Assembly (NCBI GenBank): GCA_027923505.1
Contig: BROI01000013.1
Location: 682,001-746,000 of the forward strand
Source: Mayamaea pseudoterrestris
Taxonomy: Eukaryota
Length of the DNA: 64,000 bases
Direction of reading: 5' to 3'
The notes beneath the pieces are model-generated. The model saw nothing but the letters and a program-made list of their open reading frames with translations, made no database searches and had not been told where the DNA came from. Of this stretch, positions 1,275-48,674 are shown piece after piece (the first letter of the stretch is position 1; each line of letters opens with the position of its first letter). The position numbers and the translations under genes were made by a program.

Positions 1275-2081
1275 TTACTCCTCCATATGCTCCTCCTCGT
1301 CATCATCATCATCTGCTTCCAGCTGCTCCTTGGCCCACGTCTTGGCATTCTCCAAAACATCCTTTGGAACATATTGATGCTCCCAATTGGTCGCTTGACT
1401 CAACCAACTCACTTCCAGTTCCAGCGGCTTGCCTTCGTTTTCCGACTGCTCCTGAAACAGCATGGTCAAAATCTTGACCGCTTGCTTGACCGCATCGCTG
1501 CAACTAACCCGCGATTCTGGCTTGTGCAGATTCAACTTTTCCAGTTCCGTCTTGGCCGCCTGCTTGCCCTTGCCGGCGGCAACTCCATAGTAAGAGTACG
1601 CTGCACCGTTCGGCTCGACCATGTACAATCCCGCTTGATCCGCATCTTGATCATGCGCCGCCAGCAGACAGGCCGCTCCAAACGGCCGCAGCGCGCCGTG
1701 CAGCGTAAAGTAGTGCACGTAGGCCGCCAATCGATCCGCCAGCACCATGGGCGCAATGGGCGATCCGTAAAACTCGTTATAGTCGAAGCATTCCTCCATG
1801 GCGCGACTCACCAACTGACGCGCGTCCGGCAAATTGCCGGTGCTCGCCATGCCAACGTGTTTGGAAACGTGGTGAATGCGCTTGTAGCTGCCCGTGCTGC
1901 TGACAACGAGCTTGTGCAAAACGGGTTTACTCACGGCCAAGACGACACCGTCGGTGGCCAAGATGCCAATCATGGTGGAGGCATTGTCGACGGCCTTGCC
2001 AGCGTATTCGACCTGAAAGATGCGGCCGTCGGGTGAAAAGGTGGAAGCGGACAAGTCGTAGCCGGATCCGCTCGATGCCAT
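1275..2081 (-). CDS. PSMA3: 20S proteasome subunit alpha type-3 (alpha7)
   Basis: N-terminal GSGYDLSASTFSPDGRIFQVEYA signature, RPFG motif, GKGKQAAKTELEKL and an acidic C-tail typical of alpha7. Intronless. Confidence 0.95.
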   Translation of the reverse strand: MASSGSGYDLSASTFSPDGRIFQVEYAGKAVDNASTMIGILATDGVVLAVSKPVLHKLVVSSTGSYKRIHHVSKHVGMASTGNLPDARQLVSRAMEECFDYNEFYGSPIAPMVLADRLAAYVHYFTLHGALRPFGAACLLAAHDQDADQAGLYMVEPNGAAYSYYGVAAGKGKQAAKTELEKLNLHKPESRVSCSDAVKQAVKILTMLFQEQSENEGKPLELEVSWLSQATNWEHQYVPKDVLENAKTWAKEQLEADDDDDEEEHMEE

Positions 2082-2628
2082 GGTGTAATAGTATTAATAG
2101 GAGATGAAGTGAAAGTGACGGAGGAGAGCTGCAAGAAACTTTAGCTAAATTCAATATTCAAGTGATCAGTAGATGACTAACAGTCAAGGCTTTGAGGACA
2201 AGAGAGTCGATGGAGAGAGTCTCTGCGAGTATGAATAATATTTGATCGAACGGATCCTTGTGGTTCATGGCGGACGCGGCAGGGAGAATCCAAGCGATGC
2301 GCGACGATGATCGACAATGCAGCGTTTCGATTGGATGATGCCACGTCATTGTAAGGACGCGGGAATGCAATTGTGTCGTATACGACAACTCGCCAATTGC
2401 GCATCATTGCTTTGTCAGGATCTTTGCTTGACACCCATCGTTCGCTCGACGCACTCATGCACATGGCCGCAAAGGCTCACGGATACACTCGATGGAAGCC
2501 GAGAAACATCGATGGAAAGGAAGCATGCTTTTGGAACGACTGCAATGATGAATAACGACACTCTGACATTTTGCTGACAAAAAACATCGAGCGCCCGCAT
2601 TTCTTGACTTGACCGCATTGACCTCAAC

Positions 2629-3759
2629 ATGAACAACGATCAGTTTGCTGCTGCGTTCATTGACAAGGTTGCCGAGGCAATGATTAGGCGTCTAGGTGAG
2701 CTCGCCATCGCCGAGAGGAATCGACCTGGAGCGCGCCCGAATGCTGCTGGACTGCCTGACGGTAGTGGAGCTGAGCAAGCGCCAAGAAATGCTGCAGTAC
2801 CCAACGAGGCAGCCGCGCATAACGCCGAACCACATGAGGAAGTAAATGAAAATGATGATTGGGTGCTGGCGGAGGCAAATCGCGCAGCTCGTCCTGTAGG
2901 TCCCCGTGCAGGAGCGCAGGCCTTGGATGCAAACGCGAACGCCGCGACAAATCGGCTGATGGATTGGATTGCTCAAGTTAACGAACAGAATCGGCCCAAC
3001 CTTTGGCATGGATTCACTGGTCGGAGAGTTTTGGAGCACATTGTGGACAGATTTCAGGACCACTTTGGCAATCCTGTTGCGCCAAACGCGCGATTTGTGC
3101 TGACGAACCTCCCCGGTGTCCGCCTTTCCGATCAATATAAGACTCGAAATGATCCTCCTGGGCCCAAATATAAGATTGATCTTAATTGCCGATACTTTGG
3201 CAATGAAGAGAGTCCATACTTTGCCCTTGACAATATTATGTTCGAAATTTACACAATTAAAACCCAGCGAGATGGACACGGAGAAACGTGGATGCACATA
3301 TACATGCGTGCGGGCCTGGCCGAAATGTTTTTTCGTGAATTTCAGATTGGCACAGACTGGAGAGTTTTATATGATGTGCAGGTGACTAAAACCGATGAAG
3401 AGCAGGGCTTGATATGCATCAGTGTAAACATGGATCCGATGATGCCCGTGACACGGCGCAGGGCTAGCCGAGATGCGGCAGGGAACATTATCGTTGGCGC
3501 CTTTGAGGACGTTCCTGACGATACTACTATCGCCGAATTTTTCGCAAACCGAAGGAACCACGCCTTGTATTTTGGAACCGCATTCTTTACGGCCAACTTC
3601 AATGTGTGTGTCCAAGGAGGAACGCCTCTTAGTGTTGACAGTTCCACGCATGTAGGTGGGCGTATAAACATGACCATGCATGGGCTGCGCATCATGGCCG
3701 TCGCTGATGGTTTTGCACCAATCAACGATCTGCTGTGGGATCCCAGGGGCGGCATCTAA
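2629..3759 (+). CDS. Orphan 376-aa protein, candidate endogenised RNA-virus (virga/tobamo-like mycovirus) coat-protein-like gene
   Basis: Long intact intronless ORF with an Ala/Asn/Pro-rich N-terminus and a beta-rich ~220-aa C-terminal domain (LPGVR..KYKIDL..FALDNIMFEI..HGETWMHIY..LYFGTAFF..FAPI). Viral similarity is recalled, not searched. Confidence 0.55.
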   Translation: MNNDQFAAAFIDKVAEAMIRRLGELAIAERNRPGARPNAAGLPDGSGAEQAPRNAAVPNEAAAHNAEPHEEVNENDDWVLAEANRAARPVGPRAGAQALDANANAATNRLMDWIAQVNEQNRPNLWHGFTGRRVLEHIVDRFQDHFGNPVAPNARFVLTNLPGVRLSDQYKTRNDPPGPKYKIDLNCRYFGNEESPYFALDNIMFEIYTIKTQRDGHGETWMHIYMRAGLAEMFFREFQIGTDWRVLYDVQVTKTDEEQGLICISVNMDPMMPVTRRRASRDAAGNIIVGAFEDVPDDTTIAEFFANRRNHALYFGTAFFTANFNVCVQGGTPLSVDSSTHVGGRINMTMHGLRIMAVADGFAPINDLLWDPRGGI

Positions 3760-4129
3760 GGTATCAGATAAATTCGTTGATCTTGACAAATTGACATTCA
3801 AAACTGGTTTTTCTGCATGGCGGCATGGCTACTTGGGGCTGCAATCATTCAATAAGTAGCTTAAGCGAATAACAATTGCATACACTTACCACCTGTATCA
3901 TTATAAGTAAGTAGGAAGCTATATGAGTCTTTGAACACATTCGCGATGGCATATTGAGACTGACTACCGGTATAATCATGGGCTTATAGTGAAGATTTTA
4001 TCGTCAGATAGGCGATCCGCAACGGCGCAAGTCTTCTTGCCCTAGAAAGGCTAGGGCTTAAAATAATGTGCAATTGCATGCTGGTAAACAAACCAGACTA
4101 CAAAAATGGCCGCAGCAAAAATCCCTTGT

Positions 4130-6681
4130 TCACTCGCCTTGCGCCTCATCATGTTGTTGCTTAAAGTCATCCATCAGCGCCGAGTGCCACAGCTCAAACC
4201 CCCAAACGTAGTGAACCTTGGAAGTACAGGCCATGATTTGAAGCGGCTGTCCATGAAGAATTGGCGCAAGTGGAATGGACCCAAGCACGCTTCCAAGCTC
4301 AATCGCAAAGGAATCAAAGTCAAACAAGTGTTGGAGAAATTCAAACGTGTAAATCTTGTCTGGATCCGTCGTCATGACTGACGAGTCTCGGCGCGTGTCG
4401 CTCTTGGCCGCGGCATAGAGGCGGTCAAAATTCTTTTTGCGATGCCTCGCTCGATGCAAGGATGACGCATTGGAGCTTGCTTCATTTAACAGCGTGTGCT
4501 CATCCACTGTCGGCTCGGCCAAAACATCATCCATGAGACCAATGCTCGCCTTGTCGGCGGCGGCATGCACCATGATGCACTGCGGCGTACTACCAAGAGG
4601 CGTCAGGCAGTGCGGGTTCTGCCCACTAATCTGAGCCTGCATTTGCGGAGCAAAAAACGAAATGACCTTCAATGCACTCTTGACGATAAACTTGGGAGGT
4701 AATCGTCCGCATGGCTTGTCAAGGTGAAAGCCAGTGAGCAAGTCTGTCCATGGTAACGCTTGCTTGAATTGGCCACGAATAACGGCTTGGTATCGACGAT
4801 TGACGCCATCAAAATAGCCTCGACTGTCGTCATAGGCATGTGGTGTTGTTCCTTCCGTGTGCCGGATTCGTAGCAGCAACGTGCCTGTGAGTTGTAAACA
4901 AAGTTTGAGAGGGCAAATCAATATGCCAATGACAACGCAACAATGCAACTCCATCAACAAAGATCCACTCATTGACACTCACCTCGAAACAGATCCGTCT
5001 CAAAGTCCGTCACTAGAGCGCGTCCGAGTGGTTCGTTGCCATTGTTCACCGGCAAGACAATGTCACTCGCTGATGGTGGTGCGGTCGCGTCAAAGCCAGC
5101 ATGCTTACTGGTCGCTTCCCTTTGCGACTGCTTCCACTCTTGATGCAGCGCGTGCTGCCACGAGTGTGGTGAATCTGGTGTCCACAAGTAGTGCTTGCTG
5201 CTACTGCTCGCGTCGTTTTGTTCCACGCCGCTGCTGCTGTTGCTGGCGCTGAAGCGAACGCCAAGGACTCGCGTCTGCGCATTGGCACGCAGCAGCAGTG
5301 GATACTGCGGCCAGGAAGGAGCGTCGTGGAGTTGCTTTGGTAGAATAGAGGACGATGTTTGCTGCGGTGACGACGCTGGTCGTAGGCTCGTTTGCGGCGA
5401 CACGTTAACATGACTTATATTTGCTCCGTCGTGCTCCTGCTGACTCCGACTCGACCTCGGCCGCTCAGTTGTATGATCCACTATCAAATCGCCAACCAAA
5501 ACCTTCTTGCCGCTGCTTTTGCTTGATACATTCAATTGCTGCACCAATACATTTTCGTGCTTGTGTTGCGTCGTTGGCGAGTTTTGACGATTGCCAATGG
5601 CACTGTTTTCACACTCGGCCAGGACATGCATTTGCTGCGACGATTCCTTTTGCCAGGCCAGGAGCAGCTGCGACGTTTCCTGTCGACCGGCGCGTAGACT
5701 GCTCGACGGAGCCACGAGGGGATACAGTAGTTGTTGCGTGTTTTGTGGCGATGTACTTGCTGCTGCGTCTTGTTGCGGCGAGTCTTGTTCGCCTTGCTCA
5801 TTGCTGCTGCTATCGGTTTCGGTATTGCTTTTCGGTGAAGCAGCCACCGCCAGGTCCATGTGACTCTGAATGACATCGGATTGGCAGTGACTCTTGTAGC
5901 GATAGAGTTTACTGGTGCGTGGTTTTGGATATTGCTCCGGCACTTGCTGCTGCAGATTGTTGCTGCGTTTATTTTCATCGTCTTGTTCATCGCTCGCCAT
6001 GGTCGTCGACATGCTTCTCGCGTGCCGACTCTTGAAAACGCACTCAATCGACTCCTGCACCGTCGGATCGTCCTTGTGCAGTCGATTGGCTTCCGATGAG
6101 GAGGATTGGTCGTCTTGGTCTTCATGCTTGATTTCCAGTTGATGCGGCTGACAGGCGCCGCATAAAAAGCGAAACGGCAAGACCAAGGCGTCTTGGTCTT
6201 CCAAATGTTCCGAAGAAGCACGAACCATGCGATTTGGGCGTGGAGGCTTGTACGCCTCGGGTAGAATGGTCACCGAGTCGTCGGGAAGAATGGTAGCAGC
6301 ATTATCAGCTGGTTCAATCGTTGCTTCTCGTCGTCGTCGTCTCCGCCTTGACGCCTTTTGAAACAGCGACAGACTCTTGTCGGCGCATTTATGCAAGCCC
6401 TTCTTCAGTTTCATGCGTATACTTGCTCGCTTCGGTTCCTGCTGCTGCATGATACTTTTGTTTTTGCTTTGTGACGTTTGTCTATTTGAAGCAATTGCGT
6501 CATTATTGATAATGGGAATACTCCGTGTACTCTGATTGCTATTGCTACTGATACTCGTAGTCGTAGGACTAGGAGCAGACTCGGGGCTAGTATCTGTAGC
6601 AATTGTCATTGTCTCGCTATCTTTATGTGCTGTATTGTACCGGTACGTCCTTGCGTTCATGATCTGAATCGCCATGGTCAA
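4130..6681 (-). CDS. Protein with long disordered N-terminus and C-terminal DUF1769 domain
   Basis: Exons 6681-4983 and 4884-4130 joined by GT-AG intron 4982-4885, giving DFETDLFRG|TLLLRIR...YFDGVNRRYQAVIRGQFK...YTFEF, the DUF1769-type pattern. Confidence 0.8.
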
Positions 6682-18100: not shown

Positions 18101-21100
18101 TTCTTCCGGCGCGTCGGCCACAGATCGGCGGGCTGCCATGACTGCCGCTACTTCCGGAATCAGATTGGAAAGACTATCTTCTTCGTTTTCAATCTCGGCT
18201 TCTTTGTCTGCATATGGCATCTCTTTGGGAGACTCGACTACGGATCTGCGACGGGCCATTATTGCGGCCATTTCAGGACTCACATTCGATACATTTGACA
18301 CATTCTCGTCGGTCTTCTTCGCTGGTTCTGTTTCTGCAATGACATTATCGCGCTGCTTGCGGCGCGCCATTATCGCAGCCATTTCCGGACTCACGGACAA
18401 ACTCTTAACGTCTTCCTTCTTCCTTTCGAGGTGCATGGTATCTTTTTTGGCGTCAGCTGCAGCCCGACGCTTGGCTAAAACTGCCGCCATCTCGTCTTGC
18501 TTATCTTCGCGTGGTGGAGGAGGTACAGCGCGCTTCCCGCGACTAAGAAAGCCCGGCTTCTTTGCTGGCTCAAGCTCTGCTTCTTTGGATGTTAATTCGG
18601 GCACTTCCTCATCATCCGATGCAATGGTCGCAGTCGCAGCTGCCGGCGTCGCAGCCGTAGCAGCGATGAGAGCAAGTTTAGCTGATTTATCTTCTTCAAC
18701 AGCATTGTCCAGCAGTTCCATCTGTCGGTCCTCAGATTCATCTTGGGAAACCGTCGCAGCCGATTCTCCTTCAACAGCATTGTCCGGCGTTTCCATCTGT
18801 CGGCCCTCACAATCATCTTGCGAAATTCGGGTGCACACAAAGCAGATTCCCGTCTAAACTCATCGTCAATCGTCTCGTCGTCATCTTCAATAAGTGACTG
18901 GTCTTCATCATCAATCGACTCGTCGTCATCTTCTTTAAGCGACTGGTCCTCAACGTCATCAACTTCTTCCTCTACAGATTCAGCATCGACAGATTCAGCA
19001 TCGACCGGTTCTTCAATAAAAGACTCTACTAGATCGGACTGATCGTCATCGGAGTCGTCCTCACTATCAACATCCACATCAAAGTCGTTATTCACTGAAG
19101 TTGCAACTTCATTTATGCTTTCGTTGTCACCGCCTGCCTCTCCGACTGCGATGGCCCTTTTATCATAATCATCGTGACTGGAGAATTCGACGTCCAAACC
19201 AGAAGGGGTTGCTGCTCGCTCACCACCATCGTCGGGAGCAGATGTTAAAGTTGGGGGTTGCTGCTGTAGTCTTCTGAGCTCTTCTATTTGCTTCAAAAGT
19301 TCGGCATTGGCGCGGGCAAGCTCAGCAACTCTCTCGTCTTCTTGTTGCTGAATCGGCGACAAACCAGTGTCAGTCTGATTTGCATTCTGATCCTGCGACG
19401 CAATCTCGCGAGCGTCAGGTTCAGCAGCCGGTTCGCTGGATCGACCTCGACGCCCCACTAGACCACCAAAGAACCTGTTCTTCTTCTTCTTGTCCTTCCC
19501 ATCATCAACAGCTGCCAAAGCTCCCACGTTGCCTAACTCATCTGATTGTTTCAGATCAGGTTGAGGTTCTTGTGACCGTCCACGACGTCTCAGCAGTCCT
19601 AAGTATCCTTTCTTTTTTGCTTGTTGGCCGGTTGTGTGGTCTGGTGGTGTCTCAAATTCGTCGCCCGTCACTGCGGAGGTGCCTACAACGTTTGCGCTAG
19701 TTGCTTCTATATTCTTTAATTCAGAAGTTGACCCAGCGTCGATTTGAATATTTTCATTAGCGACGCTGCGATCATGTAAATCTGTGCTTGTTGCAACATT
19801 TTCGTCTTCCACTTCGTCAGTTATACGACGACCGACTGAACCACCAAAACCAATTGCGTTAGTCAATAGCTCTACTCGTTCAAATTTCAGCTCCGTTTCA
19901 TCGGTAACTGTCCTATTGGCAGCCTCATCACTATCGTCGGATATTTTTATAGCTGATAAATTGTCATCCGATGCACCAATCGACTGTAAATCGTCGTCGT
20001 CGTCGTCATCATCATCATCTTCTTCCTCTTCTTCATCATCATCGTCATCATCCGCCGAGGAAGTGCCAACTGATACGGAAGCCGCAGCAGTCTCCGCTTC
20101 AGCTGTAGACTCTTCCATCTTTGTTTGAGTCGACGCAGTCGCAGCTTGTAATTCGTCATCTTGGTCATCCGATGCAGAACTCGAGTCGTCGGATGCAGCA
20201 GCTGAAATGGTGCTCTCTTCCGATGACGTTTGCTGGGATGGAATTAAATCTTCGGCCAACTGAGCATCACGACTGCCACCTGACTCGTTCACTTCTATAT
20301 CAGAATTGTCGTCACTGGATGTCTCAAATACAGCGGAATCGATCGCCTCATGACCATCATGTCCAACTGTCTGCGCTGTATCCTCTCGACTAAAGTCGTC
20401 GACTGCTTCATCGGCGACAGCATCGACGACAGGTGAGTCGTTGTATAGTCCCTCAGCAACAGCGTCGTCACTCTTGTCGGTAGACTTTGCTCCAGCATCA
20501 ACAGCGACCGCATTGATATCAAGGACTTCTACAGCAGCAACAGCGGCGGATTCATCGGTCTCCTCAAATACGTGTGTAACAGCGCTCTTTTCTTCCTCAA
20601 CCGCTTGAGTGCTATCAACATTAAAAGAATCGGACGTCGTTGCTGTAGCTTTTTCGCGTTTGCCCCTCCGCTGCCCAAAGAGTCCACTTTTCTTGTCATC
20701 TTCCTCTGCAGGCTCGACCGTATCTCGTTCCTTCGATTTGCCGCGTCGCTTGATAATCCCACCAAAGAACCGATTCTTCTTTTTCGAAACATGGTCATGC
20801 TCGTCTTGGTCCGCGATAGACAACTTTTGAGACTCATTTGCCTTGACTTCCTCCTCATTCGACTCAATGGCCTTTGTAGGCATTTGCTGGTGGTCCGTGT
20901 CGGCTGCTGCAACCACTAGTTCAGCTTCGGCTGTGTTCCTTTCTCCTTCCCCATCATCATGCGTTAAAGCATTCGCTTCCGCTACTGATACGCCCTCTAC
21001 CTCGACTGGATCCGTAGCACCGACATGCTCCTCCTCTCCTTGTCCCTCGTCCTCGCCAATCCCTGCAACAACTTCATGTAAATTGTCAGCCTCCACAACA

Positions 21101-23046
21101 TCATGCTCTACCACCGGCTCGACTATTTGTGTTTCAGGGCTGATTGCTGCATCAGTATCATTCTCGATATCCTTGTCCTTCTTCTTCCTCGAAAAGAGTC
21201 CCAAAAAGCCAGATTTCTTCTTCTTTTCCGGCTTGCTCGTGTCAGTAGCTGGCTGAACAAATGACACAATTCGTTCAACTTCCGTGTCAACACTCTGCGA
21301 CTCGTTGGATTCTTCGTCAATCGAAGCAAACGCCGCCGAGTTTTCATACGTTTGTGAGCTCCGCAGCTCGTTGGGCAATGTGATTTGCGAAATGTCGTCG
21401 TCCGCCAGCGCCGATACTTTGGCCACCCGCTGGTCTCGAATCTCCACCGGCAAGGTGATTTGCGAAATGTCGTCATCGTCCTCCACCTGATGGATGGGAG
21501 GTGCAGCACCAGCTTGGTCCAAGTGCTCGTCAATGTGATCGTCGTCATTGTCGTTTTCACTTTGCTCCGACGACTCGTTACTCCCCGTGTAGCCGCTCCG
21601 AATGCCAGCGTTCGACGACGTTGGCTTGAGCTGGTCGACAGTTTCATTGTAAACAGCACGAGGAGCAAAATCATCGTCCATGTCAACGTATTCCCTTTGT
21701 TCTTTAACTTCGTCGTCGCCATCAATACCTTCGTCGTCGTTGCCAATTGACGCTGACGATTTGTCGTCATCGTCCACTGGCTTGTCGGAATGGTCCTGCT
21801 GCAGCACTTTATCATAAGCATTAAGCTCGTCGTCTTGACTATCGACGGCAACTGCCGCCACTGCCACAACCGCAGCGCTCGCCATTTGGTTCTCGTCGGC
21901 AGCGGCAACATGATCACTGTTGCTGCTGCTGTCACTACGTTTCGATGACTTGGACGAAGAGCTGCTGCTGCTGGACGAGTTGCTGCTGCTCGATGAATTG
22001 CTCGAAGAGCTGGACGACGAGCTGCTGCTGCTACTACTACTCGACGATGAACTACTGCTGCCACTCTTGCCCGACTTGCTCGAGGCAAAACTCTTTTGCG
22101 AAGCATCATCGTCGTCGTCCTTGTCGTCATCCTTGTCAAGTGCTACAGCTGCAGCCGCAACAACCGCCTTGGTTTCGACTGGCGAAAACTGCATCGGAGA
22201 CTCTGGCTTGGTGGGAGACGCTTGCTTGATTGGTGATTTGACGGGCGATTGCACCTTGGCTGACGACGCATTGATAATTCCCTTGCTCTTTTTGGTGGGC
22301 GTCTTGGGTGATTCCTGCAGCTCGTCTTGATCATTGTCACTCGACGCGGAATTGTCCTCCTTCTTTTCAATCATTGCAGCTACTTTGCTCACTGTCTTGG
22401 TCTCCTTGGTGGGCGAAAACGACTCGGATGCTTCCGACTCCTTGGCTGACGGGTCGTTGGCACTCTCGCTCGACTTGCTGCTGCCACTCGAAGATGAGGA
22501 AGAATCCGAGCTGCTGCTGCTGCTGCTGCTGCTGCTCGATGAGCTGGAGCTCGAGTCACTGTCACTCTCACTGTCACTACTACTGCTTGATGATGAAGAT
22601 GACGATGATGACTTGTCGTCGTCGTCGCTTTCCGAATCGCTCTTGCTGCTGCTTTCGGAATCATCCTTTTTTGTCGCTCCCTTTTTCTTTGCCGCAGCAA
22701 CTGCTACTTTTGCCTTTATCTCTGGCTTGGGCGAGTCTACCTTCGTTGCTATTGCCTTTTGAGACAATTGTCGCTTGGCGACGGCCGCCGACGTTTCGTT
22801 AATGGTGACAGAAGCCTGTCGTCGATTGGCGGCTGTTGCGCTCGTCGCCACCACCACTGCGGGGCTGTCGTCATTCGAATGCGCACTACTCTCACTGGAT
22901 TGACTAGATTTGCTGGACGCCGCCGATGAATTGCTGCTGCTCTTGGACGACGACGAGCTGCTCGACGATGATGACGACGATGAGGATGATGATGAACTCG
23001 ACGAAGAAGAATCGTTGCTTTCGCTGTCGCTGTCACTGTCGCTCAT
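15149..23046 (-). CDS. Giant (~2,630 aa) LRR membrane protein, split in the sequence by a single -1 frameshift near 18815-18850
   Basis: ORFs 23046-18592 and 18838-15149 overlap and share motifs (E(R/K)VAxLAxxNxELxxQIExLR coiled coil; K-x-GF(L/F) basic motifs). The C-terminal part has a TM (CCFMLIICAVLLLIVALVTGVVLGL), PT stalk, LRR cap, many LRRs and a Cys-rich end. Confidence 0.75.
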
Positions 23047-39925: not shown

Positions 39926-41848
39926 TTACAAATGTATAAGAGCTTCGTTTGCGCCATTACTGTTGCTGCTTCCACTCGAATTACTGCCATCCAAATCATC
40001 GTCGCGGCTTTCGCGTCGAGTTTTCAGTGCTGTCGCTGTTGTTGCAACATCTTTGTGTTCTAATGATGCTTCCTTACTACCGATCATTGGCATTGGCAAT
40101 GGTTTTGTCGCTGGTACAGTGATTCTGTGCTTGCGGTAGTGGAGCGCCTTTGGATGGCACGTGGCGGCGCTGGAAAACATGGCCGCCAATTGCTCCAGCG
40201 GCAGCGTCACCAATCGTTTGCGAGGCGAGTCGTCTCCGTTGCAGCCGCCAACGACGCAGGATGCCGTTGCGGCAGGCGACTCGTTAATATTGTCGTTTGC
40301 AGCGTCCAGCGCCACATTAGCGTTTGCTGTTTCAAACGCGCCATCCAACCGTTCTCGCTGCTCGCCTTCAGTGGACTGCAACCACGACGCTCCAATCTCC
40401 TCCAGCGCCACCATGTCGTCATGAGACACGTTGATATCCGGAAGATTATCGGACACAAGCAAGTGCGGCAGCATGCGACGGTTATGCCGCGCATTGGCGC
40501 ACAATCGCACCGCCTTTTGGAGCCGTCGACTCGCCAGTAGACCATTGATGGCGGGCGTTAGTTGCTTGGGCAGCCAACCTTGGGGCGTCGCCCAGAGAAC
40601 GTCGCGCCACTGAAAGGAATAGTCTTGGAGGCAGGAGGCGTTCAATAGTTCCATCATGTTATTGTTGTTGTTATTGTCACCTTTTGGTTCATCGCTGCTA
40701 CTACCACTAGTGTCGTTGACAGTCGTCGCACTCGTCTGGCGCGACCCTTGCCACTGACACAGGAACGCATACTCTTGCTGCGCCAACGCCGGACTAGTCG
40801 CTAGTTGCGGCAGCTTCGTCAAAACGTCCTTGATCGACAATTTATCATGGCAGAGGTAGCTGCAGGAAATGAATTCAAACTTTTTGACGTGCGGCGCCAC
40901 GAGCAAGATGCAGACGCGGCGAAAGTATTTGGACAGAATAGCGTCGTCGTGCAAGTTGTGGTAGGAGCAGTCGACAATGTGAACGCAAACCAAGTTTTGC
41001 TCGTGGTCGTCGGCCCAGGAAATGCGGCGGTGGCGGCGAGTAGTTGGAGACGTTGGAGGCGACGTTAAAGAATGTTTGACTTGCTGCTGCTGCATTTGGT
41101 CCGCGGCATTTGTACTTGCTGCTGCAACCTTGATAGATTCGCCGTCATTGCTTCGTTCATTCTCGTCATTGCCTTGTTCATCATTGTCTTCTTGACAGTA
41201 GTAGTAGTTCGACGGCCAGGATGCATCAAAATGAGGCGATTGAAGTGACCCACAAAATTGAAGGGGCGTTTCGTCGTACCAGCGACTAAAGCGCAGCAAG
41301 ACCGACATTACGTCTTCCTCTGGCTCGTCGTCGTTCTCGTCATTGTCGTCATTGTTTTCGTGACTCTGCTGCTGCTTCAAGATTGTACGCGTTTCTTCTT
41401 TCAAAGCTGATACTGGCTGCTGCGGCTTCTTGTGTATCGTCTCAATTGATTCATGCTCCAAGATTCCGTCGTCGTCGTCATCAGCATTGTCCTCCTGTAG
41501 TTCCGTTTCGGACCACCATCCAGCGTAGGAGGCTACTTGATGTGATTGCTTCAGCAGTGGCTCCTCCGTGTCCGACTCTTCCTGCTCCTCCTGCTGCATA
41601 ACGGCATGATTCAAAGTCGTGGCGTCACTTGCCGCCGCCATTGTCGCATGATGCAGTTTGCGACTCCTTCGTCGCTGCATAATGCGAGGCGCAATGGACG
41701 CGCCAAAGAATGAGAGACTATTGTTAGTGCTGCTTTCAATGTCATTTTCTTCCTTGTTGAGTGAGCAAAAGACGTCGTGGCGGCGGCGGCTGGGTCGCTT
41801 GGAGTGCAGAATCAAGACGGATCGGCCGAAGCGACGACGAGGACGCAT
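39926..41848 (-). CDS. Hypothetical protein with PP1-docking-like RISWAD motif and putative ubiquitin-like domain
   Basis: 640-aa ORF with RRISWADDHEQNLVCVH, followed by a compact beta/alpha domain (VCILLVAPHVKKFEFI...IKDVL...ELLN...DVLWATP). Start codon uncertain. Confidence 0.65.
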   Translation of the reverse strand: MRPRRRFGRSVLILHSKRPSRRRHDVFCSLNKEENDIESSTNNSLSFFGASIAPRIMQRRRSRKLHHATMAAASDATTLNHAVMQQEEQEESDTEEPLLKQSHQVASYAGWWSETELQEDNADDDDDGILEHESIETIHKKPQQPVSALKEETRTILKQQQSHENNDDNDENDDEPEEDVMSVLLRFSRWYDETPLQFCGSLQSPHFDASWPSNYYYCQEDNDEQGNDENERSNDGESIKVAAASTNAADQMQQQQVKHSLTSPPTSPTTRRHRRISWADDHEQNLVCVHIVDCSYHNLHDDAILSKYFRRVCILLVAPHVKKFEFISCSYLCHDKLSIKDVLTKLPQLATSPALAQQEYAFLCQWQGSRQTSATTVNDTSGSSSDEPKGDNNNNNNMMELLNASCLQDYSFQWRDVLWATPQGWLPKQLTPAINGLLASRRLQKAVRLCANARHNRRMLPHLLVSDNLPDINVSHDDMVALEEIGASWLQSTEGEQRERLDGAFETANANVALDAANDNINESPAATASCVVGGCNGDDSPRKRLVTLPLEQLAAMFSSAATCHPKALHYRKHRITVPATKPLPMPMIGSKEASLEHKDVATTATALKTRRESRDDDLDGSNSSGSSNSNGANEALIHL

Positions 41849-42614: not shown

Positions 42615-45600
42615 CTACGCCTTCTTCCAAAACGAGTCCATGTTAGCCGTCGCGGCGCCAATGGTCGCGTCCAGTGCCTTGCTGAGTTTCTTTTGCTCCT
42701 TGCGCTGCTTTCGGGCTTCCTCCTCCGCCTTGAAGCGTTTAATATCGTCGCGATCGTAGAATAAGTCAATCTTGGACTCGATTTCGTATCGATCCGTCGA
42801 GATTGTTTTGACGTCATTGTCGAACGATACGGTTCGTCGCACGTTACGTTCGTCGGGTGAGCCGGTGACATTTGATTCGCCGACCATGGGCGTATCCGTC
42901 GAGGCAGCGATGGGCTGTTTGTTTAGTGTCAGGTCGTCTTGCGCATCTGCACTCTCTCCTACGACCAGCATTGTTATTGCATTATGATGTGCTGTGTCAT
43001 CACTGACGCTCAATGCTTTCTTGACCGCTGGTATTGGATCGTCTGCACTACCTGACTCCTCGTCAGAATCTGACTCTTCATTTTCAGAACTGGATGACTC
43101 CGACTCCATATCTTCAGTTTCCGACTCTTCCTCGTCGGCGGATTCATCAGTGTCGGCGCCATCCTCATCGGTCTCCGAGCTCAAGTTCGATCGTTCCATG
43201 CAAGGAGGCTTTGAGCCATCGACAGTGCTTTCGTTCGCCGTAAGATCGATCGTATTGCTCTCTCGTTCGTCGTCCGAATCATAGTATACTTTCCTGCCGA
43301 CCGCGTTCAAATAGTAGACGGGTTCGCCGTCTTCATCAACATAAACTTTTGTGCCTTCCTCGTCTAGAAAAAATGGATTATTTTCAATGTCGTAAAAATA
43401 GCCGTCATCGTCTGGACTTGAGCCAGTTTTTGCTGCTGCGTTTGCTTGCTCTGGACTGATCACGTTGCTAATTGAAATTTTCGCTTTGACGGCCTCTGTG
43501 TCGTTGCTTACCACGCTTAATTCCAACCGTTCATCTTCGACTGCGGTTGTGGTGCATTCAGTCGATACCTCAGATTGTTTGACAGTGAACAACTCAACGA
43601 TTGATTGCTCGTCAACCGTTGCTACAGTCTCGACACATATGTCGCTCTCGTTTGCATTTGCGCCATCCTCTGTTGCTGATATAGCTTCTTGACACATTAT
43701 AGATTGATCGATACCGACTGCTACTTCCGAGACAACTTCATCAGTCAGCGTCTTCTCTACTTCAGGTTCGAGGTCGGAACTGCTGCTAGTACTCTCGTCG
43801 CCAACTGTCGTAAGCAGTGGCTCCCATGAAAGGGTCCCCATAATATTATGTGGTTTATCAGCGAGGCTACCGTGTAGCTCGGTCCATTCCTTTTGAAACC
43901 GAGCTGCGGTCTTGTCGAGCTGCATGTGCTTGAGATAGGACAGCACTGCGAGGGCCATACTGCTTTGTCGGTCGCTCTCATCGACGAGTCCTGCGGCATC
44001 CGACCTACCAGATGATAGAAGTGGCTCTCGGCGAGGGATGGTGTCAAATTTGATGTTGTCCAACGACGCTTGTACCATTGCCTTTTGGTGGTTTCTTCGC
44101 TGTCGGAGCGCTTCAAGCCGACTTTCCGGTTCGGCACATGATTCGGGCGGCACGAGCGCTTGATTTTCAGTAATGGTTTTATCGCCGATATGGTTCAAAA
44201 GTGCATCCTTGCTGATTGTCTTGCGATCAGTGGTGTCGCTTACGCATTCATCCAGCTCACGATTTCCTACAGATTCGGCAATTATATCGTGTGTTTCAGC
44301 AGGCGACTCGACTATAGCCAGTAACGCGCTTGCTTGCTCAGATTCGTCTTCGATTTGGTGGTTCAATGACGCGTGAGGCACGTGATTATCCACTATATTT
44401 TCTATGTTCACAATGTCATCTGGAGGATCAACTAACGGGCCTGCATTATCTGGCTCTGGCTCAAGGCTCTTGCCGAGTTCGTTGCCACGAGGAACGTCCC
44501 TTGATCCTCCAATCACAGGCTTGAGCAATTTCGAAAACCAACTACCCCTAGCTTGGTTTTTATCACCGTCCGTGACAGTGATGGGTGCTTGTACATCTGA
44601 TTCGCAATCTGGCAGTGTGTCTGCCTCTAATATACTTGATGCTTCAGTAGTGTGGGGTTTCGCCGGCGTTTCTGACGATAGTCCAACTTTGTGGCATTCA
44701 AATTCAATATTACCCGACAAGCTCGATGTAACGGCATCAGCTGTTACATCGCCTTTCGTTCCTGTAGCTATCGAGCGAATTGTGCCATTTTCGCTGGCAG
44801 ACGACTTGCTTACAACCGGTTTTGTGGCCTCAAGAGACTTGTTACCGATCGCCAAGTCCGTTTTAACGCCTACTCTTGACAACAAAGCCATTGCGTACTC
44901 CTGTTCTTTCGTCAAACAGTTATCCTCCTGGTCATCAGGATCTGTGCACGATTCGCTGTAACTCTCGCCGCAGCATTCACTGACGCTCTCCTCGTCAAGA
45001 TGACTATTATTGGTCTTCTGATCATTACTAACCTTGTGCGTCGCTAACAGATTTTCGTTCAGTCCAAGGCCACTTGAATCTCTTGCGGTTTCAACGCTCT
45101 CCATTGCGACATTGCAATTACTCATCTCGTTTGCAATACTGCCTACTTTTTGAACATTTGTAGACTCTTCCTCCGGTTGTTCGCCATGATGGGAGAAAGA
45201 TCCGCTCATCTCCTCATCCAAATGAAGCCCCTCGGGGCGCAGCGGCGTAACTCCATTGTCACAATTTTGACTCGATTCATCTGAATCTTCATGCGCTATC
45301 AATACTGCAATGGTAGGTGACGCAAGCTCCTCTGTGCCTGTGACCACATTATTCGTCAATGCCGGAGAACTGGCGCCGGATGTATTATTTGCTCCGGTAA
45401 GTTCACCTGGAGAGTCAGTGTTACTAGAGGTCGAATCCGATTGCAGAAAGAGTCCATTTTCCTTCTGCTCTTTCACTAGCAGTGCATTGTGCGAGCTCGC
45501 GGTTACAGAACATTGGCTACTGCTGTTATCGAAATCCACCTTACTCTCCGAGACGTCATTCACCGTCAGTTCGACCGCAGTATCCGCATCTGCATCTTTC

Positions 45601-48600
45601 GCAGGATCATGTTCAACAAGGGGTGAAGGCCCAGTAGCTTCTACTTTCTGAGCCTGGTTTGTAAAAGGTTCTTCGACTAAAGGCACCGTATTAGCACGTA
45701 ACGTGACATTTTCAGCAGGCAGTACCGAGTATGGATTCAAATCGTCGTCACTTTCAATCGAGGCTGAGTGGTCGTCATCCTCATCCACCGCGCTACCGTC
45801 GCAGCTGCTGTCACTCGTATGTTGGTCGCTGTCCTTTGTAAAAGCAAATTTTGTGGCCGCCACAGCGTCATTATCCTGATCGCCAAGCAATGGCTTCACT
45901 TCCAGGACGCTCGCATTCTCTTCTGAACAACTGCTACTGTCACTGCCACTTTCGTCATCGCTGCTACTTTCCTGTTCATCACTCAATCCATCACTACTGA
46001 CTTCCGCTGAACGGCCTTTCTCCACGACAAGTCCACTGTGCCAATCATGAGCTGCCTCTTTTGCGCCTGCTATTGCGTTTGAGTCAGTCTTTGGCTTTTC
46101 CTTCGCGGCAAAGCGGGCGAGTAGAGCCATGGCATACTCTTGCTCTGCCGTATGACCCACGTCGTGCGAAGAGCTTTCGGTTTCCGAGTCGTTTCCACTG
46201 TCGTACGACTCACTGTTTTCCATAATCCCTTGGAAAACGTCATGTGATGCGGATGAGTCAGGAAGAGGTTGACAATCGTCTTCGTGTTAGGAATACAACG
46301 CCGCAGCATGTGCTCGTCGCTTCTTCGTTTTGATCTGCTCATCGTCAGACGATGAACTGTCATCAGTCCCTGAACTACTGCTGCTGCTGCTATCATCCAA
46401 CCACCTTGTAGAGGCTGTCATCGCTTTCGACGGCGGGGCAGCAACTGCGGGGAGAGTTTTGGATTCAGTCGGTGATAATGCGGATGTATCTTCCTCCTCC
46501 TCCGTTGAAACTTCACATTCACTAGCAGCATTTTGCGGTGAATATTTGTGATGTGGTAAATCAATTTCAGTACTTCCGACTGCATTTAACGGACTAGCTG
46601 GCGATGGATCGACGGCAGCGTGGTATATATGACCAGGATCCGTCGTCACCGTCGGCCATCGCTTTGCTGGCTGGTCATTTTCGTCTTTTCCACTATTTGC
46701 AAAATCGGCAAAGTCGCTTCGATTGCTATTGATTGTTGGCTCGGTGGCCTTTGCTGGCGGTTTCCATCGTTTCGGTTCATCCATGGCAAAATCAGACATG
46801 GAGTTTGGTCGAACAGACGAGGCTGCGCTTGACGGTTCCACCTTTGGTGGCGGTTTCCATCGCTTTGCTGTTTCCTGCCCAAACGCAGCAAACTCGGAAT
46901 GACGATTCGTGTTTGTAGTCGTTGTTGGTTCTGGTTGTTGCTGCTGTTTCGCTGGAGGCTTCCAGCGCTTGGGCTCCTCCATGGCAAAATCCGACATGGA
47001 GTTTGGTCGCGCATGGACAGGAGGCGCTGCTGCTGGAGGCGGCGGTTTCCATCGCTTCGGCTCGTCTTGGTCAAAGTCGGACACGAGTGGTTTGTGCAGT
47101 GATGGTGCTTGTGATTGGCTAGACTCTGGTTGTTCCGACTGCGAATAATACTCTGACGCGCCACGAGAAACTTCCGAAGCTGAATGACCCGATGCCGATA
47201 GCGACGCATTAGACTCATCCAGTGGAGTTCGACTAGGCAGCGTCGATTGACTTTGCCTGGCGCCACTACGCAAACTGACGGCAGATTGTTGTTGATTGAT
47301 TTTCGTTTTCGATGAAACTGCATTCGTTGCGGCTGCCAATTGTGGATTTATCGCCTGCATTTGCATCGCCAGCAATGCGGCGCGCTCTTGCATGGAGGGC
47401 GTTCGGTCGGGCGGCGGAGGCCGCAGTTGCAGCTTGAGACTTGCAAAGGTGCCTGCTGCTGCGATACGCTCACTGCGTGCTGCTGCTGGTTTTGTTCCAG
47501 ACGACGATTGTCCTTGTCCTTGTCGTCGACGAGGACTATTCGTCTTTGGACTATGATTATTATGAACGACGCTTCGCGCTGATCCAGGCGACCGTTTGCC
47601 CCTTGGCGACCGCTTATTGGAGCTGCCAACGACGCGGCGTTTGGAAGAACTTGGCGACGGACTGCTTGCGACAGGCGCTGCTCGATTGCCGCCACTCACA
47701 GTAGCCTTTTGCGTCTTTGGACTCCTTTTCGTACTTCCTTCATCGACTCCTCCATGAGCTGCAGCTGCACTTGTTCCATTAACTCGTCCATGAGTTGCTG
47801 CTATGGTAGATGGTTGATGCGATGTGGATTGTTGCGTCGACACTGCGCCTACATTTACATTTGCAACATCACCACTTCCGTCAGCCTTTTCGTAGTGCAA
47901 TCGCTTGGCCAGCAACTGGCTCCGCTCCACAATGGACATGGTTTTTGGAAATGTCAAGGTGGCATTGGAATTGACTGATTTAGTGGATGATTTTGATTGA
48001 TGATGTTCCTGCTGGAACGCTGCCGCTGGTGCGTTGATTGCATGCGCATTACTGCTTGTCTTCTTGCCGACGAAATCATCAATCGTCTTGCGGTTCGATC
48101 GGTTCGACGCCAGTGGCGTTTCCGCCAATGGATGGGACTGCTTTTTACCTGGTGTCACTGATGATGCTCCTTGTGTATCTGCTGCTGTTGTTGCTTGCTT
48201 GGTTGCTGCATTCGCCTTTGTTCTTGATCCCACTGTCTTTTTCGATTTCGCTGTCGTTTGCTGCTGCTTTGCCGCGTTCAACTTCGCCTGGATTTCCAAA
48301 ATTTCCTTTTGCAGTTTCAGCGCTTCCAGTTTCCTCTTCAAGTCTTCCATGGCGTTGGATTTCGGAGGCGCTGACTGCAATGGCGGAGGTGCGGCAGTAG
48401 TCGGTCGATGACTGTTGATTGCTGTCGCACTTGCGGATCGATCCGTTACTGCCGTCTGCTGCTGCGTCGACAAGTTGCCACTGCTCACGGTCATTTCCTC
48501 CTCGTAGTCATATGCATCCACTGCATCGTCATTCGCAGATTCGTAGGTGGCCTCCGTGTACGAGTAATCCTCGTCGTCGTACATGGCGTCGTCGTCCTCG

Positions 48601-48674
48601 AGTACTATTTCCTCCTCGTAGACTTCGTCACTCACTTCGTCGAAAGATGATGCTGCTGGAATGGAGGACTGCAT
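42615..48674 (-). CDS. Large disordered protein (~2,020 codons) interrupted by one in-frame TAA at 46289-46287; LisH-like and RVxF-like motifs
   Basis: ORFs 48674-46287 and 46223-42615 are in the same frame, separated by TAA plus 21 open codons. KRWKPP repeats, LisH-like LAVLSYLKHMQLDKTAARFQKE and C-terminal RTVSFD...LFYDRDDIKRFK. Confidence 0.65.

Follow-up and report, generated by a model that had tools for sequence, protein, structure and literature searches.

The ORF and its place in the window

We analyzed a stretch of 64,000 nucleotides from Mayamaea pseudoterrestris (Eukaryota), taken from the forward strand of contig BROI01000013.1 (GenBank assembly GCA_027923505.1, positions 682,001 to 746,000). 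We call this whole stretch the window and number positions from its first letter. Near its start, an intact and intronless open reading frame (ORF) of 376 codons and a stop occupies positions 2629..3759 of the plus strand. We propose that its translation, P0001, is probably a protein that binds single-stranded DNA (ssDNA), or SSB, of viral type that originated in a DNA virus, a proposal that leans on a predicted structure. The frame begins with the first ATG after a stop codon, and the protein is collinear with its homologues, with no alignment gap hinting at an intron. A preliminary description of this DNA had given exactly the same frame, and the motifs that it quoted (LPGVR, YKIDL, FALDNIMFEI, GETWMHIY, GTDWRV, YFGTAFF and LRIMAVADGFAPI) are all in the translation.

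The protein can be divided into three parts. Residues 1-129 (2629..3015, plus strand) form a low-complexity N-terminal extension that is rich in Ala, Asn and Pro and net acidic (18 D+E versus 12 K+R over residues 1-130). Its sequence is not conserved across the family in alignment A1, and its pLDDT is below 50 in a model made from the single sequence. Residues 130-365 (3016..3723, plus strand) make up the conserved domain, recognized from the span of phmmer matches, a structural model and fold matches, and predicted to adopt an oligonucleotide/oligosaccharide-binding (OB) fold like that of T7 gp2.5 and of CP312R from African swine fever virus (ASFV). The short C-terminal tail (3724..3759, plus strand) ends in DPRGGI followed by the stop codon and is not acidic, as seen in alignment A4 and in a list of the last eight residues; the G-I ending is common to P0001 and its clade-A relatives P0003, P0004 and P0010. 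The low-complexity N-terminus and the beta-rich C-terminal domain of the preliminary description are both recovered in A1 and in the model.

The ORF lies between two host genes, as had also been claimed. The upstream neighbor encodes a proteasome alpha subunit (1275..2081, minus strand; Proteasome PF00227, 2.5e-37, together with Proteasome_A_N) and the downstream one is a Duc1/DUF1769 gene (4130..4972, minus strand; Duc1 PF08588, 1.6e-36). Neighboring genes show spliced GT..AG joints in the RNA-like sequencing runs described below. We scanned 27 ORFs of the window with Pfam, namely five that include the gene and its two neighbors and 22 further ones of at least 150 aa. Thirteen of the latter match at E<=1e-4, all to ordinary cellular families that include LRR, P-type ATPase, Myb, steroid dehydrogenase, ketoacyl synthase and ThiF, and the other nine have no family at this threshold. 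The window contains ordinary spliced eukaryotic genes. No transposase, reverse transcriptase or viral family was found among the 27 ORFs, in agreement with the earlier statement that no transposase or reverse transcriptase is nearby, nor was any other viral hallmark gene. A tblastn search found no paralogue of P0001 in the window (next best E 0.92), the surroundings of the ORF show no target-site duplication, terminal repeat or insertion scar (only short repeats at chance level), and the Rfam scan of the window gave 0 matches.

A small family of unnamed proteins

We searched for relatives of P0001 with an exhaustive HMMER (phmmer) scan of 1.84 billion proteins, which are cluster representatives, at a cut-off of E<=1e-3. 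The scan returned 26 relatives; 16 also pass E<=1e-10, but no match reaches E<=1e-30. P0002, the best match, has an E-value of 1.8e-21 and 33% identity to P0001. Since 26 proteins match at this cut-off, the ORF is not a chance frame. A frame left open by accident in intergenic DNA would explain the lack of a named family and nothing more; the 16 homologues at E<=1e-10 and the confident fold obtained from multiple sequences make this hardly credible, and we consider it refuted.

Nearly all matches fall on residues ~130-365 of P0001, i.e., on its C-terminal domain of ~235 aa, and the family alignment shows a domain of ~240 residues behind N-termini of variable kind. Residues D201 and Y225 are invariant in A1, while H145, Y189, W221, N223 and D256 are nearly so. 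The family-conserved residues kept in P0001 include H145, Y189, D201, W221, Y225, T242, W244, D256 and Q259. The N-terminal extensions are net negative in 23 of the 26 aligned rows, neutral in two and positive in one.

Before alignment and tree building we dropped a 78-aa fragment (P0021) and two bacterial-type multidomain proteins, P0026 with a CHAP domain and P0027 with bacterial Ig-like repeats, which match the query at residues ~319-372 only and were judged spurious. Cluster duplicates (P0028, P0030, P0032-P0038) were also left out. Alignment A2, with 22 rows, was the input for the domain model and for the family profile. The maximum likelihood tree of the family, built on 25 rows, has two clades, each supported at 100/99. 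Clade A (8 rows) contains P0001, P0010, P0020, P0012, P0003, P0007, P0004 and P0008, whereas clade B (17 rows) contains the member found at a metagenomic locus, L001, to which we return below.

Twenty relatives were looked up, and none has an informative name except for the source label of P0011. They come from Logan, JGI/IMG, ENA and NCBI assemblies, are mostly metagenomic, and mostly lie on contigs of 0.8-5 kb; longer contigs are those of P0023 (10 kb), P0033 (23.8 kb), P0029 (31.6 kb), P0018 (41.9 kb) and P0010 (411 kb). P0010 (335 aa) is the clade-A relative on the longest contig, of 411,642 bases. The fungal relatives expected in the preliminary description did not appear, as no relative bears a fungal name.

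In P0011 (505 aa), a metagenomic protein labeled GIY-YIG endonuclease at its source, the domain is joined to a GIY-YIG-like module (E 4.5e-4) and to a CCHC knuckle (E 0.02), neither of which reaches the Pfam cut-offs. This fusion is a hint at nucleic-acid work. A second, tandem GIY-YIG-like module can be seen by eye at its N-terminus in A1, and the modules and the CCHC knuckle precede the SSB-like domain.

Other searches added next to nothing. P0001 has no match in Pfam at E<=1 and none in PHROGs. A word-index search of 5.8 billion proteins gave no match with P0001 and only P0024 with profile A2, and the ESM Atlas gave no usable match for P0001 or for the L001 member. When P0001 was compared with the PDB sequences by phmmer, the one weak match was of low complexity (6xyw_Bp, E 0.015, residues 66-116) and we took it as chance.

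The predicted fold resembles viral SSBs

The model made from the single sequence of P0001 is unusable (pLDDT 34.6). The domain model obtained with AlphaFold from the 22 rows of A2 has a pLDDT of 76.3 and a pTM of 0.75, and shows a beta-rich OB fold. We compared it using Foldseek with the PDB and with the viral structures of BFVD (top 50 rows), and using VIA-align, which is independent of Foldseek, with 48,161 representative chains. The first 11 rows of the PDB search, counted as seven entries in the list, comprise the SSB of Enc34 (5odk/5odl/5odj), ASFV CP312R (8hw5/7yeq), T7 gp2.5 (1je5), and 4jg2 and 4klk, two phage-related proteins of which the latter is a DUF2815 protein. Foldseek probabilities range from 0.38 to 0.99 over these rows and are at most 0.08 from rank 12 onward. 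T7 gp2.5, Enc34 SSB and DUF2815 rank at the top (E-values between 9.7e-3 and 4.8e-2, probabilities of 0.99 at most). The best structural match is ASFV CP312R (VIA-align rmsd 5.0 over model residues 12-237, Foldseek probability 0.95), which the title of PDB entry 7yeq names as an ssDNA-binding protein.

The same four families lead the VIA-align results, with ASFV CP312R first (Z 6.9, 179 residues aligned), followed by T7 gp2.5 (Z 5.7, 136 residues), Enc34 SSB (Z 5.7, 148 residues) and DUF2815 (Z 5.5, 133 residues). The remaining rows listed are also OB folds, mostly of ssDNA binders (SSB, RPA, Cdc13, MCM N-domains). The aligned spans are of 133-179 residues for the gp2.5/CP312R class, versus 86-100 for most rows of single-domain cellular SSBs. 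Because Z-scores below 8 are frequent among unrelated models, according to the caution given with VIA-align, we put the weight on the coherent ranking and on the long aligned spans rather than on the scores. On this basis, the domain most likely has a gp2.5-type OB-fold core with elaborations, understood as a structural likeness of the predicted model.

The BFVD search gave 12 matches at E<=1e-3. Among its best 50 rows, 34 are named nucleocytoviruses, five are phages and 11 are unnamed. The nucleocytoviruses include mimivirids, pithoviruses, pandoraviruses, the P31K protein of iridovirids (two rows), ASFV CP312R, HaV01, AaV and TetV. There is no RNA virus among the 39 named rows.

The genomic setting of one relative

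A scan of metagenomes returned five loci with members of the family. Gene setting is known for one row of the tree, the clade-B member of L001. The Pfam search of the ORFs adjoining members in L003 and L005 gave nothing. On a fourth, the 1.8-kb contig L004, the member at 2-962 runs through two frames that overlap (2-571 and 525-962), and is either a frameshifted copy or the result of a sequencing error.

Locus L001 covers 15,824 of the 16,452 bases of its contig, which is probably a fragment. It has a GC content of 41.7% and nine ORFs, which are 375-952 aa long, lie on alternating strands and have hardly any spacers and no introns. The first (952 aa) encodes a divergent family-B DNA polymerase (PolB) of the RNA-primed type (PF00136, 6.5e-21). 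Its nearest PDB sequences are archaeal PolB, at 1e-13, followed by Pol II and Pol alpha, and it has three unnamed relatives with 33-49% identity on contigs of 8-13 kb (P0040-P0042). The second (530 aa), which looks like a P-loop helicase gene, has a Walker A motif (GPANIGKT), a Walker B motif (VLVGDLE) and weak P-loop matches (PDB phmmer E 0.23-0.76). The third is the family member (4709..5860). It is followed by an ORF of 637 aa whose start encodes a zinc ribbon of the TFIIS type (E 0.0035, below the Pfam cut-off) and by one of 375 aa with no match. Then come an unusually short Rpb2-like ORF of 833 aa (domains 6 and 7 at ~2e-7), two unknown ORFs, and a truncated Rpb1-like ORF (2.6e-9). A phmmer search of the PDB sequences with three L001 ORFs that lack a name gave nothing for two and P-loop hints for one. 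Judged from its sequence, L001 is a putative replication and transcription module, very divergent, of the type found in large DNA viruses, and it may come from an undescribed lineage of these viruses. The placement of the family member among replication genes, next to a PolB and a Walker A/B ORF, is seen in L001, while P0001 itself lies between host genes.

These results bear on the interpretation given in the preliminary description, an endogenised coat-protein-like gene that came from an RNA virus of the Martellivirales type, akin to tobamo/virga-like or vivivirus coat proteins. It drew on a resemblance of motifs only, which none of our analyses supports. P0001 finds no Pfam family, its predicted fold is beta-rich and OB-like, RNA viruses enter the PDB list only with unrelated rows of probability <=0.08, no RNA virus is named in the BFVD rows, and the L001 relative adjoins genes for DNA and RNA polymerases on a DNA contig. 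A coat protein of an RNA virus is contradicted by the fold, the Pfam and BFVD results, and the L001 context, and we consider it very improbable. The broader idea of an endogenous viral gene between host genes remains plausible, with an intact frame, but the results point to a large DNA virus as its source, since the structures nearest to the model are SSBs encoded by dsDNA viruses and the L001 relative lies amid replication and transcription genes.

The same observations have to be confronted with a cellular origin, in which the family would be a lineage-specific OB-fold family of protists, the window gene a vertically inherited and fast-evolving member, and the L001 copy one picked up from a host. 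OB-fold SSBs do occur in cells (VIA-align rank 5 onward), and all 26 relatives are unnamed, many of them on contigs of 0.8-4 kb that are possibly transcripts of uncultured eukaryotes. The low-complexity inserts of P0020, rich in Gly and Ala, are of a kind typical of GC-rich nuclear genes, the window copy is host-like in composition, and four IMG/VR scans with family members gave no locus. However, the best structures belong to the virus-specific gp2.5/CP312R class and have the longest aligned spans, giant viruses account for 34 of the best 50 BFVD rows, and the sole relative with a readable context lies in an intronless replication and transcription cluster. The rarity of the family, with 26 representatives in 1.84 billion proteins, is also ill-suited to a conserved cellular gene. 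We regard a cellular origin as unlikely, though it is the strongest of the competing explanations.

State of the copy in the host genome

P0001 evolved fast. Its terminal branch in the family tree is of 2.46, versus a median of 1.19, which is one of the two longest, and its amino-acid composition is deviant. When compared with the 18 other full-length members, it keeps 28 of the 45 columns with a conservation of 70% or more, the lowest share (0.64-0.95 in the others), and 15 of the 20 columns with one of 80% or more (0.73-1.00 in the others). Among 23 window ORFs it has the lowest codon-adaptation value, though narrowly so (0.732 versus 0.745-0.865).

Five sequencing runs from two studies contain the stretch wholly or partly, and none is recorded as RNA. 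The kinds of runs X2-X5 are not on record, and we judged them RNA-like or DNA-like from their behavior. Runs X4 and X5 are RNA-like, with a very uneven depth that reaches 50-97 over the proteasome gene and with canonical spliced joints on the minus strand (71->649 and 4883->4982). They cover parts of the ORF with 0 differences at a depth of 2-3.6 (X4 at 2517-2957 and 3341-3575, X5 at 3255-3479) and leave others uncovered (X4 at 3007-3340 and 3675-4008, X5 at 2339-3006). Contig depth is unfit for ranking expression, and we see here a weak hint at low transcription of the ORF.

Run X2 is DNA-like. One of its contigs spans 2319-4164 with 0 differences at a depth of 19.3, whereas nearby contigs reach 38.8. 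We found in X2 no second allele at >=90% likeness over 2319-4164 and no contig joining across. Given the difference in depth, the segment may be hemizygous, i.e., present in one haplotype only, or its second allele may differ by more than 10%. The other organisms of the same study have next to none of the sequence words of the ORF, which is no proof of absence.

The intact state of the gene raises the question of whether the host has put it to use. A domesticated viral SSB, selected for DNA repair or replication or for interference with an infecting virus, would overlap with the origin that we propose. It would fit the uninterrupted 376-codon frame, the retention of the most conserved columns within the range of the other members, the coverage of parts of the ORF without differences in the RNA-like runs, if at low depth, and the presence of the identical sequence under a second organism label (X2). 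On the other hand, domestication sits poorly with the lowest codon-adaptation value of the window, with the long branch, deviant composition and unique changes at conserved sites, and with RNA-like depths far below those of the proteasome gene. In addition, no targeting signal is evident to us in the N-terminus as read from the translation. We deem domestication rather improbable, a little more so than a cellular origin.

The runs also inform on the neighboring genes. In X4, a contig skips positions 4884-4981 (98 nt; CT..AC on the plus strand, i.e., GT..AG on the minus strand), and the Duc1 ORF (4130-4972, minus strand) and a 568-aa ORF (4969-6675, minus strand) are probably exons of one gene. 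In X5, a contig of depth 85 skips 577 nt (72-648) with CT..AC ends, which fits a minus-strand intron of a well-expressed gene at the start of the window; the shorter flank of this skip has just 23 letters. Elsewhere in the window, four long minus-strand ORFs lack a Pfam family at E<=1e-4, namely 18592-23046 (1484 aa), 42615-46223 (1202 aa), 46287-48674 (795 aa) and 39926-41848 (640 aa). They are possibly lineage-specific genes.

Proposed origin and function

Taken with the modeled fold, these data would fit the following scenario. P0001 would have a disordered and mildly acidic N-terminal extension, followed by an OB-fold domain of the type seen in T7 gp2.5 and giant-virus SSBs. It would belong to a small, previously unnamed family carried by large DNA viruses that infect microbial eukaryotes and form an uncharacterized lineage. 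When the source virus replicates, this domain would coat the ssDNA of the replication fork beside the viral family-B DNA polymerase and a helicase-like protein. We infer ssDNA binding from the predicted structure. By analogy with the acidic C-terminal tail of gp2.5, the acidic extension would probably occupy the DNA-binding groove or recruit partners; the behavior of the gp2.5 tail is taken from PMC10359462. A single viral gene would then have entered the nuclear genome of the host between two host genes, as an endogenous viral element (EVE) from a DNA virus, the virus-to-host direction being the one we favor. Once captured, it would have become host-like in composition and evolved fast, while staying intact and probably weakly transcribed.

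Several results weigh against this scenario. At the level of sequence, the A2 profile has 0 matches at E<=10 among all PDB sequences, and its hhalign comparison with A5, a profile of six T7-type gp2.5 sequences taken from phage records, gives a probability of 0.8%; this profile comparison covered T7-type gp2.5, the giant-virus SSB group being compared by structure. No Pfam family is common to the 26 members at E<=10. A tblastn search against phages found nothing. IMG/VR scans with A3, P0018, P0014 and A4 gave no locus, and one with P0010 reported two stretches encoding a relative but 0 loci; two degenerate peptide motifs of P0010 then found 0 stretches. P0001 ends in LWDPRGGI and has no acidic C-terminal tail of the gp2.5 type with a terminal Phe. 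At the level of structure, the model is a prediction from 22 sequences, Foldseek finds no PDB match at E<=1e-3 (TM-scores 0.25-0.49), and even the best Z-score, of 6.9, is within the range often reached by unrelated models. As to the origin, a single contig provides the viral context, and its member is in clade B, whereas P0001 is in clade A. No capsid or packaging gene was identified on L001, which makes it virus-like rather than proven viral. Finally, P0001 has unique changes at two conserved sites, N223H (N in 18 of 18 other members) and G299T (G in 17 of 18), and its GC content does not differ from that of the host (0.515 for the ORF versus 0.502 for the window; GC3 0.50), so that composition gives no independent sign of a foreign origin.

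Since the scores are middling (Z 5.5-6.9, TM-scores of at most 0.49), we speak of a resemblance of folds and not of proven homology. Similarly, because the tests of membership (profile, Pfam, tail, IMG/VR) went the other way, we do not claim proven membership in the gp2.5 class and hold a gp2.5-like way of working to be the most likely one. With these reservations, we still find a viral-type SSB of DNA-virus origin the most probable account of P0001.

A more ambitious version of this account seems doubtful to us, more so than domestication in general. In it, P0001 would be a domesticated SSB from undescribed large DNA viruses that infect diatom-like algae and have unusually divergent, shortened PolB and RNA-polymerase subunits, like those of L001 and the relatives of its PolB. 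The gene would be kept by the host either for replication or repair or to act as an antiviral decoy by poisoning the replisome of related viruses, and the family would be a new branch of gp2.5-type SSBs whose regulatory acidic tail moved to the N-terminus.

Significance

Past infections leave few records, and viral genes that persist in host genomes are among them. To our knowledge, few large DNA viruses have been described from diatom-like algae. If our reading is true, the gene is a record of a past infection by a large DNA virus, and a function can be assigned to a family that no database annotates. The family would also be linked to a virus-like element with very divergent polymerases, and could serve as a marker for this lineage in metagenomes and as a handle for experiments. 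Our analysis corrects the first reading of the gene, as evidence for an RNA-virus element or for a fungal link is absent. Gene transfer from giant viruses to algae is well known, and the gp2.5-type fold of giant-virus SSBs is known as well. What is new is an unannotated and very divergent family that has its acidic region at the N-terminus, is linked to an unclassified virus-like element whose polymerases are shortened, and is present as one intact copy in this eukaryote.

Comparison with known systems

The setting of the gene recalls the giant-virus-derived EVEs of algae and protists, in which genes with viral-type relatives also lie amid ordinary host genes. Such insertions are published for green algae, oomycetes, Symbiodiniaceae and a Chaetoceros diatom. 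What we find here is a single isolated gene and not a multi-gene viral block, and its source lineage is not a recognized one.

As for the protein, its expected function is that of the gp2.5 class, i.e., coating of ssDNA at the replication fork beside the cognate polymerase and helicase. The function of gp2.5 is defined by an acidic C-terminal tail with a terminal aromatic residue that contacts the polymerase. This tail ends in Phe, and D231 and F232 are invariant in A5. The acidic stretch is C-terminal in gp2.5 and N-terminal in the family of P0001. The last residue of many clade-B members is aromatic, too, but it follows basic residues, unlike that of gp2.5.

SSBs of the gp2.5 type are present in giant viruses as well as in phages, according to two sources (PMC4889955; bioRxiv 10.1101/2024.02.29.582850). 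The giant-virus group comprises the P31K protein of iridoviruses and its homologues in mimivirids, phycodnavirids and marseillevirids. CP312R, the best structural match, and these giant-virus SSBs are the closest to the family studied here. They are similar to it in size (~260-310 aa), and the known ones are encoded by large DNA viruses of eukaryotes. The identity between CP312R and the family is just ~8-10%, and the variable acidic N-terminal extension is a feature of this family that sets it apart from the CP312R group.

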